Both the position numbers and the translations under genes were made by a program. Of a stretch of DNA of 64,000 bases, positions 2,049-63,035 are shown one piece after another. Source of the stretch: an uncultured bacterium (lineage in GTDB: Bacteria > Macinerneyibacteriota > Macinerneyibacteria > Macinerneyibacteriales > CAYRFE01). Where the stretch lies: the NCBI GenBank assembly GCA_964423645.1, contig CAYRFE010000012.1, forward strand, positions 20,085 through 84,084. The letters run 5' to 3'. Position 1 is the stretch's first letter; the number at the start of each line of letters is the position of its first letter. The notes below the pieces were generated by a model. That model saw only the letters and a list, made by a program, of their open reading frames with translations. It was not told where the DNA came from and did no database searches.

Positions 2049-2830
2049 TTTTTCAAGCTTTCAACTATATCACACGCATTTTTAATCATCTGTGGATTTA
2101 TAGCAAAATATTCAGAAATAATCCCGATTGTATCTATTGAATGTTTAATGTTTTTTTTCTCTTCTCGTGTACTAATTCGAAAAAAATCTCTCTGAAAATA
2201 AACTTGCTCGTTACCGTTCGTTCGGTTAAGACATAACGCTCGCATTGAGTTTTGGCCAAAAGATCGTTTCCAGGCATTGATGAATATTTCATCGTTGGTA
2301 AATATTGAAGAGATCCTGTACCTTAATTTTATACCTGAGTGAAGTGTACTTGTATAGAGACAATATGAGTTATTTTCATGGGTCACATGCACATCATTAA
2401 GCGGTGTTTCGCAATGATACGGAAGCAAGGACAAATCAATCGGATATGAAATAAGATATCCGGGATCCGTAAGATACATACGACCACTTTCGTGAACAAT
2501 CAGACCGCAATGACAATCACGTGCCATGCGCATATCAGCGAGAAAATATGAGACAGAAAAGCCGCAATGTTGTAACAACTGTTTCAGTAAATTCGTAAGA
2601 GAAAAACATGTCCCTCCCAGACCGTGGGTTCTATATTCTTCCCAAACCGTCGAAGGCATTCTCATTGAAGCATCAGGAGTACCATTTTCGGCAAAGGAAA
2701 TGATCTTTGAAACATTTTCGTAAGGAAGTTTACTGAAAGCAGACAGGATAGCACTTAAAAGCGCCATCCTGTCTTGTAAATGAGACGGTAATATATGAAA
2801 CGTTTCAAAAAACTCGTAAACAAACGACAT
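2045..2830 (-). CDS. Arylamine N-acetyltransferase (NAT)-like protein
   Basis: HGLGGTCFSLTNLL resembles the NAT catalytic-Cys motif (RGGyCFElN). Downstream HCGL…YLTDPGY resembles the His/Asp (yLvDvGfG) region of the Cys-His-Asp triad. Start overlaps the pilC stop. Confidence 0.45.
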   Translation of the reverse strand: MSFVYEFFETFHILPSHLQDRMALLSAILSAFSKLPYENVSKIISFAENGTPDASMRMPSTVWEEYRTHGLGGTCFSLTNLLKQLLQHCGFSVSYFLADMRMARDCHCGLIVHESGRMYLTDPGYLISYPIDLSLLPYHCETPLNDVHVTHENNSYCLYTSTLHSGIKLRYRISSIFTNDEIFINAWKRSFGQNSMRALCLNRTNGNEQVYFQRDFFRISTREEKKNIKHSIDTIGIISEYFAINPQMIKNACDIVESLKK

Positions 2831-2833
2831 CCA

Positions 2834-4048
2834 TCACGCACCGGTGGACATGGTCAATATCGGTAAAAACATTGCAATAACTATAACACCCAATAATCCA
2901 CCGATAAACACCATTACTAACGGCTCCAACATTGATGTCAAACCTTCAACGGCGTTATCGACTTCAACTTCATAAAAATCAGCGATCTTCGAAAGCATTT
3001 CTTCCAATGCACCTGATTTTTCTCCGGCACTGATCATATGGACGACCATCGGCGGAAAAACTCCTGTTTCAGCTAAGGGCTTTGATATTTCCGAACCGCC
3101 TGCAATACTTTGACGAGAACGTAATATTGCTTCTTCAATAACCAAATTACCTGAAGTGCGTGCAGTAATTTCCATTGCCTGGAGGATATCAACGCCGCTA
3201 CTGATAAGAGTTCCTAATGTACGTGTAAAACGGGCAACAGCCGATTTACGAACAATATTACCGAAAATCGGGGCTTTTATTGCGACACCATCCAATATCT
3301 TCGCGCCGGCTGGGGTTTTTTTCCATATTGTGAAAACAACACCTATTGCAACCATTATCCCGATAATAATAAGGATGTGCCCTTTAACATAGTCACTGGT
3401 AGCAATCAATCCCGCAGTGAGGGCGGGAAGTTTTTGCCCCATATCCTCAAACATGGTTTTGAACTGAGGAATAACAAATGTCAGTAATCCGCCAACAATG
3501 ATTATAGCTATAAAAAAAACTGCCGTAGGATACGCCATCGCAGATTTGACTTTCCCTCGCAACGCATCTGCTTTTTCCATATAAACCGACAGTCGGTCGA
3601 GAACATTGGTCAGCAAACCGCCTGCTTCTCCCGCCTCTACAAGACTGGAATATAATGCATTAAATACTTTTGGATGTTTACGCAATGAATCATTCAAAGG
3701 CTTTCCCGATTCAACATCAACCTTAACGGTAGAAATAATTGTTCGAAGCTTCGGATTTTCAACCTGTTGAGAAAGAATATTCAAGCATTCAACAAGTGGA
3801 ATACCCGCATTAAGCATCGTAGAAAATTGACGTGTAAAAATAACCATATCTCTCGTCGTAACATTACCCATTCCGGGAATATTAACTTTAATATCTTGAG
3901 CCTTTTTAGAAAGACTTTGGATTTTTATATTTCGTCCGCTGAGTAATTGACGTGCCGATTCTTCATTTTGTGATTCTATCTCACCCTCAGTTTTTTTGGC
4001 ACCGATCATGCCGACATATTTAAAAACAGGCATGTAAATCCTCCTCAA
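2834..4048 (-). CDS. pilC: Type IV pilus assembly platform protein PilC (GspF family)
   Basis: 404 aa. Duplicated GspF-type domains (…NAGIPLVECLNILSQQ…) and three TM segments. ATGA overlap with pilT. Order is pilB-pilT-pilC. Confidence 0.9.
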   Translation of the reverse strand: MRRIYMPVFKYVGMIGAKKTEGEIESQNEESARQLLSGRNIKIQSLSKKAQDIKVNIPGMGNVTTRDMVIFTRQFSTMLNAGIPLVECLNILSQQVENPKLRTIISTVKVDVESGKPLNDSLRKHPKVFNALYSSLVEAGEAGGLLTNVLDRLSVYMEKADALRGKVKSAMAYPTAVFFIAIIIVGGLLTFVIPQFKTMFEDMGQKLPALTAGLIATSDYVKGHILIIIGIMVAIGVVFTIWKKTPAGAKILDGVAIKAPIFGNIVRKSAVARFTRTLGTLISSGVDILQAMEITARTSGNLVIEEAILRSRQSIAGGSEISKPLAETGVFPPMVVHMISAGEKSGALEEMLSKIADFYEVEVDNAVEGLTSMLEPLVMVFIGGLLGVIVIAMFLPILTMSTGA

Positions 4049-5208
4049 CCTTCAGGTTTGTTAATTTTATTCATCAATTCTTCAGGAGCCGGAGAACGAC
4101 GAACAGCTTCTTCATACGTAATATGACGCTGTGTATATAAATTATATAACATCGAGTTCATAGTATTCATACCGTATTTTTGACCTGTCTGCATGTGTGA
4201 TACAATTTGTTGAATCTTATCCTCTCTGATAAGATTTCGAATAGCCGGAGAAGCAACCAATACTTCATAGGCCAGTACACGACCACCTCGTTGAGAGGGG
4301 ATCAATTGTTGCGACATAACTCCTTCAAGAACAAAGGATAATTGAGTACGGACTTGTTGTTTTTCATCACCGGGGAATATATCCACAATACGAGAAATTG
4401 TCTGCGCGGCTGAATTCGTATGTAGACTTGCGAGACATAAATGCCCGGTCTCTGCAATTTTTAGGGCGATCCGCATGGATTCCTGATCACGCAACTCACC
4501 GATAAGAATAACATCGGGATCTTGGCGCAATACATGACGCAACGCAATATCAAACGACTCGGTGTCGGTTCCCACTTCACGCTGATTTACCAGACAATTT
4601 TTATGTTTATGAATAAATTCTATAGGATCTTCTATGGTGACGATATGATCCGTTCGTGTTTCGTTAATATAATCAAGCATAGCGGCGAGCGTGGTTGATT
4701 TACCCGAACCGGTGGGACCGGTCACTAAAACAAGTCCGTTAGGACGATTCGCTAAATCTTTCACTACAGCGGGTAAACCGAGGTCATCAAAGGTCTTTAT
4801 ATCAAATGGAATCGTACGAACGGCCATAGCGATCGCGCCACGTTGACGAAACACGTTCCCCCTGAAACGAGAAACTCCTTTCACACTGAACGAAAAGTCA
4901 AGTTCGTTGTGCTCTTCAAATGTTTTTTTCTGTGAATCGGTAAGAATGCTATATACCAGTGCTTGCGTATGTTGCGGTGACAGACTCGGCATATTGGTAA
5001 GCGCAACCAATTTTCCATCAACGCGAACAACCGGCGGTTTACCAACGGTTATATGAAGATCTGAAGCACCTTTTTGTTTCATTATCTGAAACAATTCAGT
5101 GATATTGATTTTCGTCGACTGACCTGAAACAGTATCATCTCCTGATGGTTTATTGACATTCAGATTCAGTCTCGTACCACCCATTGATGCATCGTTAATA
5201 TCAGGCAT
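4045..5208 (-). CDS. pilT: Twitching-motility retraction ATPase PilT
   Basis: Walker A GPTGSGKSTT, Asp box, Walker B LIGELRD and His box (ASLHTNSAAQTI) typical of PilT/PilU. Length 387 aa. Confidence 0.9.
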   Translation of the reverse strand: MPDINDASMGGTRLNLNVNKPSGDDTVSGQSTKINITELFQIMKQKGASDLHITVGKPPVVRVDGKLVALTNMPSLSPQHTQALVYSILTDSQKKTFEEHNELDFSFSVKGVSRFRGNVFRQRGAIAMAVRTIPFDIKTFDDLGLPAVVKDLANRPNGLVLVTGPTGSGKSTTLAAMLDYINETRTDHIVTIEDPIEFIHKHKNCLVNQREVGTDTESFDIALRHVLRQDPDVILIGELRDQESMRIALKIAETGHLCLASLHTNSAAQTISRIVDIFPGDEKQQVRTQLSFVLEGVMSQQLIPSQRGGRVLAYEVLVASPAIRNLIREDKIQQIVSHMQTGQKYGMNTMNSMLYNLYTQRHITYEEAVRRSPAPEELMNKINKPEG

Positions 5209-5222
5209 ACATCCTCCCCGGA

Positions 5223-6965
5223 TTAATCTTCAAAGGTCGTATCGACCACTTGTTCAAAACTCGTTACCCCTTGTTTGAATTTTAAAACTGCACTTTCACG
5301 AAGGGTTCTCATCGGTGTGATCGTCGTTTTACCGTCTCTTTCAAGTTGCGGTTTACGCGCAATTTCCTTAATGTCAATAGATGACCCGCGTTCCAATATA
5401 ACTCTTCTGATTGCCTCGGTAATATACATGACCTCATAAATACCGACTCGTCCTTTGTAACCGGTATTATTACATTCCGCGCACCCGCGTTTTTTATAGA
5501 ATTTATATTTGTGAAGTTCATCTTTGGAGATTGCAAACGCACGTAATTCGGCTTCAGGCGGTGCATACTCTTCCTTACATTTTGAACACAACCGACGCAT
5601 AAGGCGTTGTGCAAGAATAAGCACCACTGATGACGCGATCATAAATGGTTCAATACCCATATTCGCCAAACGACTTATAGTGGACGGAGCATCGTTTGTA
5701 TGCAATGTGCTTAATAATAAGTGACCGGTCAATGCGGCTTTTATCGCGATTTCCGCTGTTTCAAAATCACGAATTTCTCCAACAAGAATAATATCAGGAT
5801 CTTGACGTAAAAAAGAACGAAGCGCGGCCGCAAATGTCAACCCCACATCAGATCGTACCAATACCTGGTTAACGCCCGGCATATTAAACTCGACAGGGTC
5901 TTCAGCAGTCATAATATTAACGTCAACAGAATTCAATGCACTGACAGCAGAATAAAGTGTGTTTGTTTTTCCTGATCCTGTAGGCCCGGTGACCAACACC
6001 ATTCCGTAGGGAGATTCAACAGCTTTTTTAAATTTATCAAGATCGTCCTGTTCAAAACCCAACTGAGTCATATCAAGACGTAAGTTGTCCTTATCAAGAA
6101 TACGCATAACAACTTTTTCACCAAAAATGGTCGGAAGAATAGATACACGAAGATCGACCGCCTTTTTAGGACTCACGCGCAATCTGGTCGGTCCGTCTTG
6201 CGGTAAACGCCGCTCGGCGATATCCAAATTTGACATGATTTTTATACGCGATACTATTGCATTCTGAAGACTTTTTTTAGGTTCCAATACTTGTTGCAAT
6301 TGTCCGTCAACTCGAAATCGAACACGCAATGTTTTTTCATACGGCTCGATGTGAATGTCACTTGCGCGTTGTGCAACCGCAGTACCGATGATTGAGTTTA
6401 CCAACTTAACGATCGGCTCATCCTCAGCCTGATTCTTCATTTCCATCTCGTTGATATCTTCTTCGGTATTTACTATTTCAAACTCTGCAAGGTTCACATC
6501 ATCACCGAGTGACTTGGTCATTTCCTCGGCGCTTGATCCTGAACTACCATAATATTTATCAATGGCACGCATAATAGATGTCTCAGCAGAGACTACCGCT
6601 TCAACATTATATCCTGTGCGAAATTTAATGTCATCGATTGCCAACACGTTTGTCGGATTTGACATTGCAAGCGTAATGGTATACCCCATTCGATGCAACG
6701 GTATAACTTTATATTTACGAGCGATATCCTCAGGAATAACCGAAAGAACTTTCGCATCAATTTCAAAATGCGATAAGTCGACCGACGCGACCCCCAATTG
6801 TTTTCCCAGCGCATTTGTAAGATCCGTCTCACTGACAAAACCAAGTTTGACTAGAATAGTACCGAGGCTGTCTTTTGTCTTTTTTTGTTCATCCAGGGCC
6901 TTTTTAAGTTGAGATTCATCAACTAACCCTTCTGTAATCAACAACTCTCCAATTTTATTACTCAT
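5223..6965 (-). CDS. pilB: Type IV pilus extension ATPase PilB (GspE family)
   Basis: 580 aa. N-terminal GSPII_E_N-like domain, Walker A GPTGSGKTNTLY and C-terminal tetracysteine (CSKC…CAEC) zinc motif typical of PilB/GspE. Confidence 0.9.
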   Translation of the reverse strand: MSNKIGELLITEGLVDESQLKKALDEQKKTKDSLGTILVKLGFVSETDLTNALGKQLGVASVDLSHFEIDAKVLSVIPEDIARKYKVIPLHRMGYTITLAMSNPTNVLAIDDIKFRTGYNVEAVVSAETSIMRAIDKYYGSSGSSAEEMTKSLGDDVNLAEFEIVNTEEDINEMEMKNQAEDEPIVKLVNSIIGTAVAQRASDIHIEPYEKTLRVRFRVDGQLQQVLEPKKSLQNAIVSRIKIMSNLDIAERRLPQDGPTRLRVSPKKAVDLRVSILPTIFGEKVVMRILDKDNLRLDMTQLGFEQDDLDKFKKAVESPYGMVLVTGPTGSGKTNTLYSAVSALNSVDVNIMTAEDPVEFNMPGVNQVLVRSDVGLTFAAALRSFLRQDPDIILVGEIRDFETAEIAIKAALTGHLLLSTLHTNDAPSTISRLANMGIEPFMIASSVVLILAQRLMRRLCSKCKEEYAPPEAELRAFAISKDELHKYKFYKKRGCAECNNTGYKGRVGIYEVMYITEAIRRVILERGSSIDIKEIARKPQLERDGKTTITPMRTLRESAVLKFKQGVTSFEQVVDTTFED

Positions 6966-6992
6966 TTTTCTATCCCCCTCGGGTACTGATGT

Positions 6993-7022
6993 AATATCAA
7001 GAGGGAATTTTTAGAAAAATTC
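6993..7022. promoter_or_regulatory. 14-bp perfect inverted repeat between the kor operon end and the pilB start
   Basis: AAGAGGGAATTTTT-AG-AAAAATTCCCTCTT. Arms are exact reverse complements. No clear U-run on either strand, so the role (terminator vs operator for the pilBTC promoter) is unresolved. Confidence 0.5.
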
Positions 7023-12710: not shown

Positions 12711-12908
12711 ATGTCCGACTGCCCGAAAACAAACGAAAATCTCGATCACTGCACATGCACGTATGAACCCTGCTCGCGGAAAGGTCACTGCTGTGAGTGC
12801 GTCGCATTTCATCGTAAAAACGGAGAGCTGCCGGGGTGTTTTTTCTCAAAGGCTGCAGAACGCACATACGATCGCTCAATAAAGGCGTTTATACGCGACA
12901 GAACATAA
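12711..12908 (+). CDS. Small cysteine-rich protein (65 aa, 9 Cys + 4 His), putative metal-binding
   Basis: [34 protein letters not shown]… Strong AAAGGAGG SD 5 nt upstream. Divergent from the CsoR-family repressor. No match to a characterised family that I can name with confidence. Confidence 0.6.
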
Positions 12909-12984
12909 ATTAAAAAAAAACCTTTTCAAAACTATCATTTTTTTAACTTTGTGCCCGCCCCATGCTTCGACTTAGCTCAGCACA

Positions 12985-13089
12985 AGCCCCCTCCCGCATC
13001 TCGGAACAATTGCTTCGCAATCACTCGGTGACCGTCGGGAGGGGCTTACATTGCTATATAATGGGGACTCCGTCCCCACACCCCTTTTT
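12985..13089. repeat. Structured repeat element 'Y', copy A (second copy at 61792-61873)
   Basis: About 60 nt are near-identical to 61.8 kb (GGGGCTTAcATTGcTaTAtAATGGGGACTcCGTCCCCACACCCCTTTTTaGAAAATAAAG). Two hairpins. Hairpin 1 shows a compensatory change between copies (CTCCCG/CGGGAG here vs CTTCCG/CGGAAG). Hairpin 2 GGGGAC-TCC-GTCCCC is followed by ACACCCCTTTTT. Lies between convergent genes. Confidence 0.55.
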
Positions 13090-13132
13090 AGAAAATAAAG
13101 TTTCTTTGGAAATTTTGAATTTTGCAAAGGTC

Positions 13133-60038: not shown

Positions 60039-61106
60039 ATGATAAAAACGACACGTATTCAGGATTCTCAGCGAAAACCCCTTTTTGCCGATTCATCCAA
60101 ACTTGTATTCGGCAAAGTATTTACCGATTATATGTTTACATGCCGGTATACGACGGAAAAGGGGTGGTTCGATGCTGAAATCAAACCCTATCAACCGCTT
60201 GTCCTAGACCCCGCCGCAATGGTTTTCCATTATGCACAGGAAGTGTTTGAGGGACAAAAAGCATATCTTTCCCCGGATGATAAGATCCTCATGTTTCGTC
60301 CGCTTGACAACGCAAAACGATTGAATCATTCACTTTCCCGCATGTGTATGCCGACTTTTCCCGAAGAATTGTATATTGAGGCTGAAACGGAACTTTTAAA
60401 ACTTGAAAAGAGATGGATACCGAAAGGCAAAGGAACATCACTGTATATACGCCCTACCGTGATCGCAACCGAGCCTGCGATCGGCGTTCGCGAGGCAAAA
60501 GAATTTCTTTTTTATATTATCTGTTCACCATGCGGGCTATATTTTCCTGATGGTTTTAAACCGATTTCAGTGATGGTGAGTGAGGATTATGTTCGTGCTG
60601 CTCCGGGCGGTACCGGCAATGCAAAAGCCGGCGGAAATTACGCATGCGGTATGCTGGGAACTCACATCGCAAAAGAAAAAGGATACGGACAAATTGTATG
60701 GCTTGATGCATGTGAACGCACCTATATTGAAGAAATGGGTGCGATGAATATCTTTTTTGTTCGAAACAATACGCTTATTACGCCTATGCTCACCGGCACA
60801 ATATTAGAAGGCATCACCCGTCGTTCAATTATCGAACTTGCACGTTCACTCGGGATTACGGTTGAAGAACGTCGCATCGCGGTCAGCGATATTGTTGAGG
60901 GAATACAAGACGGTTCCGTGACCGAAGCATTTGCTGCGGGTACGGCGGCCATCATTGCCCCGATAGGGAAAATCGCATATAAAAACATCGAATATTCTAT
61001 CAGCACAGAACCCGGAATACTGACAAAGAAATTGTACGATCAGTTGCTCGGTATTCAATACGGCGAATTGGACGATCCGTTCGGGTGGGTAGTGACCATA
61101 CAATAA
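60039..61106 (+). CDS. ilvE: Branched-chain amino acid aminotransferase (class IV PLP enzyme)
   Basis: Fold-type IV BCAT motifs (…EGQKAYLSPDDKILMFRP…, catalytic-Lys region GTGNAKAGGNY, EEMGAMNIFFV). Start at the second ATG (60039), 5 nt after AAAGGAG. Confidence 0.85.
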   Translation: MIKTTRIQDSQRKPLFADSSKLVFGKVFTDYMFTCRYTTEKGWFDAEIKPYQPLVLDPAAMVFHYAQEVFEGQKAYLSPDDKILMFRPLDNAKRLNHSLSRMCMPTFPEELYIEAETELLKLEKRWIPKGKGTSLYIRPTVIATEPAIGVREAKEFLFYIICSPCGLYFPDGFKPISVMVSEDYVRAAPGGTGNAKAGGNYACGMLGTHIAKEKGYGQIVWLDACERTYIEEMGAMNIFFVRNNTLITPMLTGTILEGITRRSIIELARSLGITVEERRIAVSDIVEGIQDGSVTEAFAAGTAAIIAPIGKIAYKNIEYSISTEPGILTKKLYDQLLGIQYGELDDPFGWVVTIQ

Positions 61107-61124
61107 ACGGCACGGACACTACAT

Positions 61125-61148
61125 AGGGCGCTCGTCGCCCTTTTTTTT
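61125..61148 (+). terminator. Rho-independent terminator of ilvE
   Basis: AGGGCG-ctcgt-CGCCCT followed by TTTTTTTT. Confidence 0.75.
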
Positions 61149-61626
61149 ACAGTGCTGAAATGTATCTGTGTGCCGGTTTCGTAAACCTGACAACAAGAGA
61201 CTTTTTTTATTAACAGACTCCGTCGTATACCACGCGATACCTCCTTCGGATTATCAGATCATTGCATCATGCAACGAACAAATTTCCCCCTGCAAATCAG
61301 CTGACTATATCGCTGCACAAGCGGACACAATTTCCAAAAATAAGACCCTCTTGATTTCAACGGAGGGGGGGGAGAACACAAAATGAACTACCCCGCAGCG
61401 AGCTACGGGGTATCTCCGAAAAATAACTTTATTTGTTTGCCCACCCCAAACCCCTTTAAAACTGTAAATAATAGAAAATCCCATAAACAAATAATAATAA
61501 ATCAGTAAGCAAAAAAAGAAAATAATTTAGCTCCCCCTCGCGGGTACGCGTTTCCCCCTCTTTGCAAAAAAGAGGGGGAAAGAAAAACGGCATTAAAAAA
61601 TCGACGTTAAATAATACCTGTGTAAA

Positions 61627-61644
61627 GACGTAGCATGCTACGTC
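61627..61644. promoter_or_regulatory. Perfect 18-bp palindrome GACGTAGCATGCTACGTC
   Basis: Exact dyad symmetry (9+9). Lies 16 nt upstream of repeat unit X1. Confidence 0.4.
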
Positions 61645-61660
61645 TCTACAGAAAATATTT

Positions 61661-61790
61661 AGGTGTCATTATCGGGCTTGACCCGATAATCCAGATGACT
61701 TTATAAATTTCTAGATTCCCGATTTCACGGGAATGACACATACCGGATTTTTGTGGCAAGACAAAAAGTAAGGCAGGATTTTATACGTTG
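61661..61790. repeat. Repeat unit X1 (MITE-like structured element)
   Basis: Begins AGGTGTCATTATCGGGCTTGACCCGATAATCCAGAT (35 nt shared with X2). GTGTCATT pairs with AATGACAC about 65 nt downstream. Internal hairpins TATCGGG/CCCGATA, TTCCCG/CGGGAA, TTTTTGT/ACAAAAA. Shared tail TTTTGTGgCAAgACAAAAAGTAAGgCAgGaTTTTAT. Confidence 0.55.
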
Positions 61791-61791
61791 T

Positions 61792-61873
61792 GCCATCCCC
61801 AAACTACTTCCGTTGAATTCGGAAGGGGCTTAAATTGTTCTAATATGGGGACTTCGTCCCCACACCCCTTTTT
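61792..61873. repeat. Structured repeat element 'Y', copy B
   Basis: See copy A at 12985-13089. Hairpin CTTCCG-ttgaatt-CGGAAG flanked by CCCC/GGGG, then GGGGAC-TTC-GTCCCC-ACACCCCTTTTT. Confidence 0.55.
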
Positions 61874-61890
61874 AAAAAATAAAGAAAAAA

Positions 61891-62042
61891 AGGTGTCATT
61901 ATCGAGCTTGACCCGATAATCCAGATTCTTGACAAATACATGGATTCCCGTTGGAATTTATCCTCATGAAAATGGGGACGGGAATGACACATAAGAAGAC
62001 TTTTTTGTGTCAAAACAAAAAGTAAGACAAGGTTTTATTATC
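61891..62042. repeat. Repeat unit X2 (diverged copy of X1)
   Basis: Same 35-nt head with one substitution. Same terminal inverted repeat and tail. Central part expanded and different. Confidence 0.55.
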
Positions 62043-62126
62043 AATACGTCGGGTAGGGGCAAACCCTACGCGTAAATCACTTTTATAATCTCGCTGCCCA
62101 TTGCGGTTAATTTTCGAATAAGTACA

Positions 62127-63035
62127 TTACTCCAACGGAATTTTGATTTTCGTGCCAGGTTGCACACGATTAGGATTATTAATGATCTGCGCATTTGCCC
62201 AGGAAAGCCACAACCATTTTTCGCGAGTACCGTAAATCTTTTGAGAAATGACATAGAGCGTCGTATCGTCATCACCGGTCACATACCATTTGATAGGTAT
62301 AGTGATAACCCAACCCGGCATGATCAGATCCGGATCTTTTATACGATCTTTGTTGTAGCGATAAATAAGCGGCCACAACGCACCTTGCCCCATAAACTCT
62401 GGACGCTTTGATATTTTTGATAAATAATCGCCGTATTTTATGGTATAGGTCATAAATGATTCTTGTTTCAAATCACGAAGCCTGATCTCCATTTCCTTCT
62501 GGCGTAATTCAAAGTCAGCAAGACGAGAATCAAGTTCTGCAAGCTTTGTCTCACGATCTTTAAGCTCGGTGTTGAGTTTTTCTATGACTTGCGGCGATGC
62601 CATTTTTGTCTCATTTAACGTGGCTATCGCAAGTTTAATTTCGGATATTTTCATTTCTTCGTCTTTACGAATCGTCTGAATGTCATCAGGGGATAGTTCT
62701 GACCGTTTCATCGAAAGATCTTTCATGTCGCTCTCTATGGCATCAATATTGCCGACCATGTCGGTTCCCGCAATATCAGATTTAGTGATCGGTGAAATAT
62801 TAAGATTTTTGGATGTTTCCATGTCTTTCAATTTTGCATCAACATCATCAACTTTTTTCACCATACCCAAGACATCATCAATTGATTTTGTTTTGGTTGT
62901 CAACTCAGACGTTGAATCCGGAGCAGTTAATTGGTCGGGATTCTTTTTTTTCTCTGAGATAATAAACTCAAGTGAAAAAAGCGAAGGAACAACACACAAC
63001 AAAACAATAATGATCATATAACGCTTCATAATCAC
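62127..63035 (-). CDS. Secreted coiled-coil protein with two C-terminal LysM domains
   Basis: Signal peptide. Coiled-coil middle. Two LysM-like segments (YTIKYGDYLSKIS…PGWVITIP and YVISQKIYG…VQPGTKIKIP). Confidence 0.7.
   Translation of the reverse strand: MIMKRYMIIIVLLCVVPSLFSLEFIISEKKKNPDQLTAPDSTSELTTKTKSIDDVLGMVKKVDDVDAKLKDMETSKNLNISPITKSDIAGTDMVGNIDAIESDMKDLSMKRSELSPDDIQTIRKDEEMKISEIKLAIATLNETKMASPQVIEKLNTELKDRETKLAELDSRLADFELRQKEMEIRLRDLKQESFMTYTIKYGDYLSKISKRPEFMGQGALWPLIYRYNKDRIKDPDLIMPGWVITIPIKWYVTGDDDTTLYVISQKIYGTREKWLWLSWANAQIINNPNRVQPGTKIKIPLE

Follow-up and report, generated by a model that had tools for sequence, protein, structure and literature searches.

The ilvE–LysM spacer and its repeats

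The spacer at 61107-62126 of the window, by which we mean the whole 64,000-nucleotide stretch of contig CAYRFE010000012.1 from an uncultured bacterium, separates the 3′ ends of ilvE and a LysM-domain gene; since these genes converge, it lies 3′ of both. An original prediction, made from the letters alone, had described this kilobase as packed with structured repeats, namely two X units, one Y unit, a palindrome and several hairpins, and had likened X to a Correia-type miniature inverted-repeat transposable element (MITE) or to a small structured RNA. Our analysis indicates that the spacer is a repeat mosaic in which no gene has been missed; nor is it a locus dedicated to a riboswitch or a small RNA (sRNA). 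It is composed of dispersed hairpin repeats, in the manner of the BIMEs of Escherichia coli and the NIMEs of Neisseria, and is real and mostly explained.

The view that the spacer holds no credible open reading frame (ORF) was borne out. The candidate ORFs at 61168-61386 and 61383-61508 have no Pfam match, and public gene calls for the same contig (L115; JGI 3300020048, Ga0207193_1000261) place nothing between ilvE and the LysM gene. ARAGORN found no tRNA-like cloverleaf, and neither tandem repeats nor a compositional anomaly were found.

Both X units show the predicted common head, 8-bp terminal inverted repeats (TIRs) and conserved tail. The heads (61661-61696 and 61891-61926) are 97% identical over 36 nt, and the 28-nt head pattern occurs twice in the window against 0.00 expected in shuffles. 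The TIRs, GTGTCATT and AATGACAC, lie at 61663-61670 and 61732-61739 in X1 and at 61893-61900 and 61983-61990 in X2; a 16-nt block, ACGGGAATGACACATA, is identical in the two units. The tails (61748-61784 and 62001-62038) are 86% identical, are common to X1 and X2 only and are missing from the cross-phylum consensus described below, which marks the tail as a lineage-specific extension. Given this shared tail and a distance of 230 bp, one X was probably generated by local duplication of the other or of a close relative.

The X doublet, its family and the Ssn nuclease

A scan with the pattern GTCATTATCNNGCTTGANNNGATAATCC, using one genome per species, recovered the 28-nt X head from a wide range of phyla, in at least 114 stretches. 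Hosts listed include Nitrospirota, Thermodesulfovibrionales, Patescibacteria, Treponema and other Spirochaetales, Chloroflexota and Omnitrophota, together with Neisseria dentiae, Candidatus Spongiihabitans, WOR-3, Fibrobacterota, Atribacterota and others, and several genomes among the matches listed carry multiple X copies. The further copies that the original prediction had called for thus exist, for X as well as for the Y core (at least 120 stretches, see below).

Alignment of the flanks resolved the full X element as GTCATT-ATCSGG-CTTGA-CCSGAT-AATCCAG – variable spacer – CTGGATT-CCCCGA-TCAAG-TCGGGG-AATGAC. One module type (GTCATT, stem, CTTGA loop, stem, AATCCAG) is therefore present twice in inverted orientation, and the left/right polarity is constant across phyla. 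Of the 121 left modules among the matches listed, 62 are paired with an inverted right module no more than 200 nt away, with a median of ~53 nt from the left-module end to AATGAC, and the other left modules are solo or distantly partnered. The stretch between the two modules measures 16 nt in X1 and X2 and ~10-90 nt in other genomes. This gene-less doublet with distinct left and right ends occurs in more than 10 phyla, Neisseria dentiae (L017, L026, L114) being one of its carriers, and X copies take every orientation relative to adjacent genes, with no strand bias.

Covariation across copies, one of the checks proposed for X, was assessed in an alignment of 24 doublets including X1, against 500 shuffles. 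The stems covary: 96% of cells are paired, and none of the 500 shuffles reaches the observed values. In the right hairpin, 6 of 6 pairs change on both sides, and the sole unconstrained pair of the left hairpin alternates between C-G and G-C. Watson-Crick pairs account for 357/363 pairs in left stems and 309/315 in right stems.

The predicted fold of X1 is a four-way junction with complementary CTTGA and TCAAG loops. Within the same 24 doublets, the junction helix P1 shows no variation, and P3 varies at three inner pairs only, where pairing is often lost. Both helices are built from conserved module flanks that are present on solo modules too. The four-way junction and its complementary loops are best read as a consequence of inverted modules, not as an evolved RNA fold.

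In a separate ENA assembly of this organism (L116), a contig ends at 11630, equivalent to window position 61668 and 4 nt into the X1 left module; a Logan assembly (L117) ends at window position ~61488, inside an AT-rich stretch. Independent assemblies break in this spacer because it is a repeat mosaic. A metagenome-assembled genome (MAG) from the same metagenome, GCA_964539615.1, whose ilvE is 78% identical to that of the window, has a mosaic spacer of ~900 bp (L058 1150-1900, minus strand). The assembly break in L116 and the X doublets in this MAG suggest that X is multi-copy in the lineage. In the L058 spacer, two X doublets alternate with three other hairpin repeats, each recurring there: CGTAGGGACGCCCC…, GGTAGACCTGTGTGTCTACCC and GGACAGGGGCAAGCCCTGTCCC. 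In a synteny comparison for insertion polymorphism, the closest ilvE relatives (78%, 61%) have different neighbours and offer no comparable orthologous empty site. The organism has little representation in public data: for ilvE, two metagenomic relatives are 82% and 78% identical and the next best homologues are at ~61%, the named ones among the latter belonging to Aminicenantes, TA06 and Desulfobacterales.

The right module connects X to a known repeat. In X1 it contains ATTCCC-GATTTCAC-GGGAAT (61714-61733), an exact instance of the pattern ATTCCC-N8-GGGAAT, which we take to be the dRS3 repeat of Neisseria; the X2 right module, with a loop of ~30 nt, does not fit this pattern. Ssn nucleases, described in 2025 (Nat Commun; PMC11893778), act on such repeats: that study extended dRS3 to the 28-nt NTS, CGTCATTCCCGCGMAVGCGGGAATCYRG, and reported that SsnA, a 94-aa single-domain GIY-YIG protein, binds and cuts the NTS as single-stranded DNA (ssDNA) only and on the sense strand only, and is inactive on RNA. 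Three nucleotides 5′ of the palindrome (GTC) are critical for cutting and the C directly 3′ of it for binding (PMC11893778). The authors generalised the NTS to Ssn-related motifs (SRM) in many phyla, demonstrated ssDNA-only cutting for Neisseria and Wolbachia homologues, and found ssn genes to be typically repeat-flanked on both sides, in an NTS-ssnA-NTS architecture resembling an insertion sequence (IS). Their SRM search pattern is HGTCWYN(0-2)YYVSBRHN(0-5)WNVSBRGN(0-2)RNCYNB, and their NTS pattern allows 1 mismatch (PMC11893778).

Of the 28 NTS positions, 25 are matched by the X1 right module. The flanks critical for SsnA, GTC-ATT…AAT-C on the sense strand, are kept in each of the four modules of the window, and the right-module consensus of other genomes, GTCATTCCCCGACTTGATCGGGGAATCCAG, fits the SRM pattern in a hand check.

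To these motif matches a gene can be added. With the Ssn-like ORF adjoining the L108 module as query, an iterative search of all ORFs of the 114 loci and the window identified Ssn-like ORFs in four of the 114 eight-kb loci among the matches listed (L108, L099, L083 and L019), against a rough chance estimate of 0.3 for a single gene per 3-Mb genome. The intact ORFs (L108, L099, L019) encode 95-98 aa and match Pfam PF01541 (GIY-YIG) at E 5e-15 to 5e-19, and the L083 ORF is a 60-aa fragment with in-frame stops, a pseudogene. In L108, L099 and L083 the GIY-YIG gene sits exactly between a left module, upstream of its start, and an inverted right module; the L019 locus ends inside the ORF, and there only the right module, after the gene, is visible. 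The L099 unit is surrounded by numerous further modules in an array, some complete and some partial. Searching NCBIfam and PDB sequences with the GIY-YIG ORFs returned nothing informative.

X possesses both ends of an ssn unit, with a short spacer replacing the gene, and thus stands to that unit as a miniature non-autonomous element stands to its parent. Judged from these sequence comparisons, X is most likely a gene-less, MITE-like, non-autonomous derivative of an "SRM–ssn–SRM" unit.

The two ends of the element also differ in promoter content. The promoter TTGACC-N17-TTATAA that had been proposed inside X1 was not recovered by our promoter scan, which gave 4 promoter-like matches against 3.3 expected. 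The scan did report GTGTCA-16-GATAAT inside both left modules (61663-61690 and 61893-61920), with promoter matches in the region at chance level. In other genomes the two bases before GTCATT are mostly T or C, often giving TTGTCA-16-GATAAT directed toward ssn or the spacer. We infer that in full-length units the left module carries a σ70-like ssn promoter, TTGTCA-N16-GATAAT, and this promoter may be the reason why the left stem (ATTATC/GATAAT) differs from the right (ATTCCCC/GGGGAAT).

A mechanism can be proposed along these lines. Whenever the DNA becomes single-stranded, during replication, transformation or repair, each X module would fold into a hairpin. By analogy with the Neisseria NTS and SsnA in vitro, a cognate Ssn would bind the module through the GTC 5′ of the palindrome and the C 3′ of it, and would cut a few bases upstream. 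As the modules are inverted, each strand would present one Ssn site at each X end. The left-module promoter would point inward and drive ssn in full-length units, and X would be a non-autonomous version of SRM–ssn–SRM without the gene. Because the spacer is 3′ of both genes, insertions there would be harmless.

The Y family and the remaining hairpins

The original prediction had placed a near-identical second copy of Y 48 kb away. A second copy does exist, although the two are not near-identical: positions 61819-61884 and 13035-13100 are 88% identical over 66 nt and a 16-nt start motif is also common, but the first hairpin differs in length and sequence between the two. The second Y unit lies in sense orientation ~30 nt after the stop of a DUF6485 gene. 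This gene is a 65-aa cysteine-rich ORF at 12711-12908 (Pfam DUF6485, E 5e-10).

Scanning metagenomes with the core pattern TGGGGACNNNGTCCCCACACCCC yielded at least 120 stretches with a Y core, and the widely varying accession series of the contigs suggest diverse habitats. In the Y stretches listed, a lineage-specific second hairpin follows ACCCCTGC. Y cores stand alone or form inverted doublets with a separation of 120-200 bp, and some loci hold several. Between co-directional genes, 25 are in sense and 6 in antisense orientation, and few lie in divergent spacers. One locus (L156) has six Y-like cores (≤3 mismatches), all on the plus strand among plus-strand ORFs, four of them 24-57 nt after an ORF end. 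Since its T5 run begins 7 nt after the stem, the Y core goes unreported in the scan for intrinsic terminators.

No Ssn-like ORF was found near Y cores. The 144 ORFs that lie within 400 bp of 124 Y cores form 121 clusters, and no small family recurs among them, a result to be read with the reservation that dispersed copies need not adjoin their gene. The sole recurrent neighbour is an IS110-family transposase in one soil lineage. In L237 (reverse complement 2807-4359), and also in L126, L136, L149 and L186, this transposase (Pfam DEDD_Tnp_IS110 and Transposase_20) ends 167 nt upstream of the Y core, and the sequence is conserved up to the Y hairpin, as though the IS had inserted alongside. In L168, a Y core at ~5030-5053 lies in frame inside a long ABC-transporter-like plus-strand ORF (4808-7009; …GEGDLSPCRGVGTESPRP…), which recalls the Rickettsia palindromic elements inserted in genes.

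Y is thus, by its sequence and placement, a separate, second widespread gene-end hairpin family. Its members lie mostly just 3′ of genes, in the sense direction, where they probably function as 3′-end hairpins or are tolerated as such. Literature searches with the Y core and with the X left module as strings returned unrelated human i-motif papers only, and no description of the Y motif was found. A search for phage origin gave 1 match to X and 2 to Y in 2.9 million viral contigs.

The remaining structures (Table 1) are probably further REP-like or terminator hairpins. The 18-bp perfect palindrome GACGTAGCATGCTACGTC and the hairpin expected at about 61388-61412 are both present, and the GC-rich hairpin also exists, with a stem of 13 bp at 61551-61581 in place of the 10 bp first assigned to it. 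The palindrome at 61621-61650 contains GTAG…CTAC, which is present in many REP-type palindromes. No second copy of the palindrome, the 13-bp hairpin, the 61389 hairpin or the GTAG hairpin was found in 1.66 Mb, a weak test, as little of that sequence is from the same genome.

Table 1. Features of the ilvE–LysM spacer, its surroundings and the full-length units of other genomes. Positions are those of the window except in the last row.
Feature	Position	Strand	Description
X1 core	61663-61739	+	gene-less doublet; two inverted hairpin modules bounded by GTGTCATT/AATGACAC
X1 left module	61665-61694	sense +	GTCATT-ATCGGG-CTTGA-CCCGAT-AATCCAG
X1 right module	61711-61737	sense -	reads GTCATTCCCGTGAAATCGGGAATCTAG; with the preceding T, the 28-mer TGTCATTCCCGTGAAATCGGGAATCTAG
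X1 tail	61748-61784	+	A/T hairpin TTTTTGT-GGCAAG-ACAAAAA, then GTAAGGCAGGATTTTAT
X2 core	61893-61990	+	second doublet
X2 left module	61895-61924	+	one stem mismatch
X2 right module	61941-61988		ATTCCCG…CGGGAAT; loop enlarged by a ~24-nt insertion relative to X1
X2 tail	62001-62038	+	paralogue of the X1 tail
Y unit	61779-61884	+	start motif 61779-61794; variable hairpin 61807-61825; core 61845-61873
Y core hairpin and tail	61845-61873	+	ATGGGGAC-TTC-GTCCCCACACCCCTTTTT; GGGGAC-N3-GTCCCCACACCCC family
Second Y unit	12940-13100	+	start motif 12940-12955; long variable hairpin 12988-13044; core 13061-13089
ilvE	60039-61106	+	gene left of the spacer
ilvE intrinsic terminator	61125-61148	+	GC hairpin and T8; left boundary of the repeat mosaic; from the terminator scan
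LysM-domain gene	62127-63035	-	Pfam LysM, E 2.5e-9
Hairpin TACCCCG…CGGGGTA	61389-61412	-	terminator-like; 10 pairs, then a T-rich tail
GC-rich hairpin	61551-61581		13-bp perfect stem, 5-nt loop: TTTCCCCCTCTTT-GCAAA-AAAGAGGGGGAAA
Palindrome	61621-61650		15+15 nt, 93% complementary; perfect 18-bp core GACGTAGCATGCTACGTC at 61627-61644
GTAG…CTAC hairpin	62051-62071		GGGTAGGG-GCAAA-CCCTACGC; directly downstream of the LysM stop, minus strand
Full-length units	L108 1110-1488; L099 308-725; L083 298-670		left module, GIY-YIG gene, inverted right module

Competing readings and related systems

We regard it as likely that the spacer is a hairpin-repeat mosaic in which X is the gene-less form of SRM–ssn–SRM and Y a separate gene-end family. 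Several observations weigh against this interpretation. For mobility driven by Ssn, the published account offers the IS-like architecture only (PMC11893778). The SRM and NTS patterns have 0 matches in the window, none of its four X modules fits the SRM pattern, and the left-module type (ATTATCSGG stem) falls outside that pattern altogether. The ORF search found no GIY-YIG ORF in the 64-kb window, and no ssn gene, whether hidden or decayed, turned up in the spacer even with the HMMER filters off. Across ~71 kb of this genome, X and Y are present in only two copies each, with no sign of a massive expansion of the Neisseria type. Both stem mismatches in the X units of the window are G·U pairs on the minus strand, the same strand that gives the best Rfam matches. 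Finally, the gene-context statistics for X and Y rest on a crude ORF caller.

A bolder version of the same idea is possible but doubtful: the X doublet would be the miniature of a class of transposons that move as ssDNA, with Ssn (~95 aa) as the only protein, no target-site duplication and two distinct hairpin ends, of which the left doubles as the ssn promoter, the Francisella RNA FtrB being a transcribed copy and Y a second system of comparable spread. Horizontal spread of such elements would account for 28-nt ends that are nearly identical from Neisseria to Nitrospirota, Patescibacteria and the lineage of the window.

Among the alternatives, the one that fares best makes X an FtrB-like structured small RNA, read from the minus strand, with a 5′ hairpin ahead of a compact multi-helix junction, and acting in trans or as a 3′-untranslated-region element of the LysM gene; we judge it unlikely. 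In the window no Rfam family reaches its gathering score, and the proposed Rfam check thus gave sub-threshold matches only. The best of these is FtrB (RF02748), which both X copies match over the full length on the minus strand, at 61650-61759 and 61874-62013, at 27.5 and 22.7 bits (E 0.019 and 0.2). Both values fall well short of the FtrB gathering score, 66 bits, and X thus stands outside that family. The sRNA FtrB of Francisella tularensis, 115 nt long and experimentally verified, is reported as Francisella-restricted; its deletion had no phenotype in the reported tests, and its Northern probe covers the NTS-like module. In the FtrB consensus an NTS-type module, GUCAUUCCCGCGUAGGCGGGAAUC, precedes another hairpin whose loop is UCAAG, and FtrB therefore resembles a transcribed Ssn-type doublet. 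On this comparison FtrB looks like a transcribed doublet of the X kind, so that such elements can be expressed. This connection is made neither in the FtrB paper nor in PMC11893778.

Other features would also agree with an RNA. The X1 fold has z = -4.5 on the minus strand versus -2.6 on the plus strand, the two stem mismatches of the window become G·U pairs on that strand, and X2 lies just downstream of the LysM gene, with a minus-strand terminator-like hairpin at 61412-61389. Across copies, however, stem mismatches comprise 2 G·T versus 2 A·C; this lack of strand asymmetry is uninformative for RNA versus DNA, and no weight can accordingly be given to the two G·U pairs of the window, which are not significant. 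The inter-module helices speak against an RNA as well, P1 being invariant and P3 hardly varying, both formed from flanks that solo modules share. Moreover, the stretch between the modules can hold a whole protein gene, X copies lie in every orientation relative to neighbouring genes, and SsnA does not act on RNA. The proposal of a small structured RNA is consequently not supported. A short transcript from X to Y, as first suggested from the sequence, is still conceivable in view of the promoter-like arrangement in the left module.

A further reading, in which X and Y would be REP or REPIN elements sustained by a RAYT (a Y1 transposase of the IS200/IS605 type) like the BIMEs of E. coli and the REPINs of Pseudomonas, is decidedly improbable. 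Inverted hairpin doublets with a short spacer are the REPIN architecture, and X and Y both form doublets without a target-site duplication; the Y core begins GTGG, and several other hairpins of the spacer have GTAG…CTAC, both features being shared with many REPs. No recurrent ORF resembling a Y1 transposase was seen beside X or Y, however: the gene associated with X is GIY-YIG, and no recurrent small gene emerged for Y among 144 neighbouring ORFs. The X and Y motifs are nearly identical across phyla, whereas REP/RAYT pairs are, to our knowledge, lineage-specific.

We give very little credence to a classical Correia-like MITE derived from a DDE-transposase IS and moved through its 8-bp TIRs. 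The TIRs, a size of ~80-100 bp, several copies within and between genomes, and the assembly break at the X1 end would all suit such an element, and the original prediction was right in so far as X is small, TIR-bounded and dispersed. The likeness to Correia elements fails at the insertion signature. A target-site duplication is missing from 34 of 54 doublets. A further 17 have just one base in common at their ends, and the last three have 3, 4 and 5 nt, so that no recurring length emerges; GTCATT is usually preceded by a pyrimidine. The absence of a fixed target-site duplication excludes a Correia-type DDE MITE. In addition, the only gene found between the same ends encodes a ~95-aa GIY-YIG nuclease and no DDE transposase, and solo half-modules are common.

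An idiosyncratic local duplication with ordinary terminators and no family elsewhere, to which the shared tail of X1 and X2 and the lack of second copies of the palindrome and two other hairpins in 1.66 Mb would lend themselves, has a negligible chance overall: it is refuted for X and Y, whose head and core recur in at least 114 and at least 120 unrelated stretches with 0 expected in the window, and it can apply to the unique hairpins only.

The interpretation of X as a gene-less ssn unit extends what is known of Ssn repeats by a left-end variant that the published pattern misses, a gene-less doublet in more than 10 phyla and a likely link to FtrB. The text of PMC11893778 does not mention a tight gene-less doublet with distinct left and right ends, and the literature search found no later Ssn papers. 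If Ssn units are mobile, X doublets would be their MITEs. The Y core, for its part, suggests another hairpin family of gene ends, just as widespread, of which the literature search gave no description. Follow-up is warranted for the left-module variant, the differentiation of left and right ends, the possible link with FtrB and the Y family.

Among known systems, FtrB shares with X the order of parts along the RNA strand, where a hairpin at the 5′ end precedes an NTS-type module (GUCAUUCCCGCG…CGGGAAUC) and a spacer then leads to another hairpin whose loop is UCAAG; it differs as an expressed sRNA reported to be restricted to Francisella. Correia elements and other DDE MITEs are likewise small, TIR-bounded, multi-copy and intergenic and can carry promoter-like and hairpin features, but X has neither TA nor any other fixed target-site duplication and no DDE parent, and its module hairpins covary. 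REP elements, BIMEs and REPIN–RAYT systems resemble X in their single and inverted-doublet hairpins, their intergenic mosaics, especially at gene 3′ ends, and the absence of a target-site duplication. REPINs resemble Ssn repeats further in being ssDNA hairpins recognised by an enzyme whose single-copy gene is flanked by the same repeats. The enzyme associated with X is GIY-YIG, in contrast, and not an HUH/Y1 transposase, and X is near-identical across phyla, not lineage-specific.

The Neisseria dRS3 repeats and NIMEs stand closer, with the exact dRS3 in X1 and with inverted-repeat-bounded units that accumulate in intergenic mosaics, although the host of the window is an uncultured, deep-branching bacterium (ilvE ≤61% identical to named relatives) with a low copy density in the window. 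Closest are the NTS and SRM repeats. While the modules of the window lie outside the SRM pattern, include the left-module variant and lack an accompanying ssn gene, they share with these repeats a palindromic hairpin of ~28-30 nt oriented by GTC(AT) on its 5′ side and C on its 3′ side, and the X family shares with them a small GIY-YIG gene (~95 aa) flanked on both sides in other genomes and a dispersal over many phyla.

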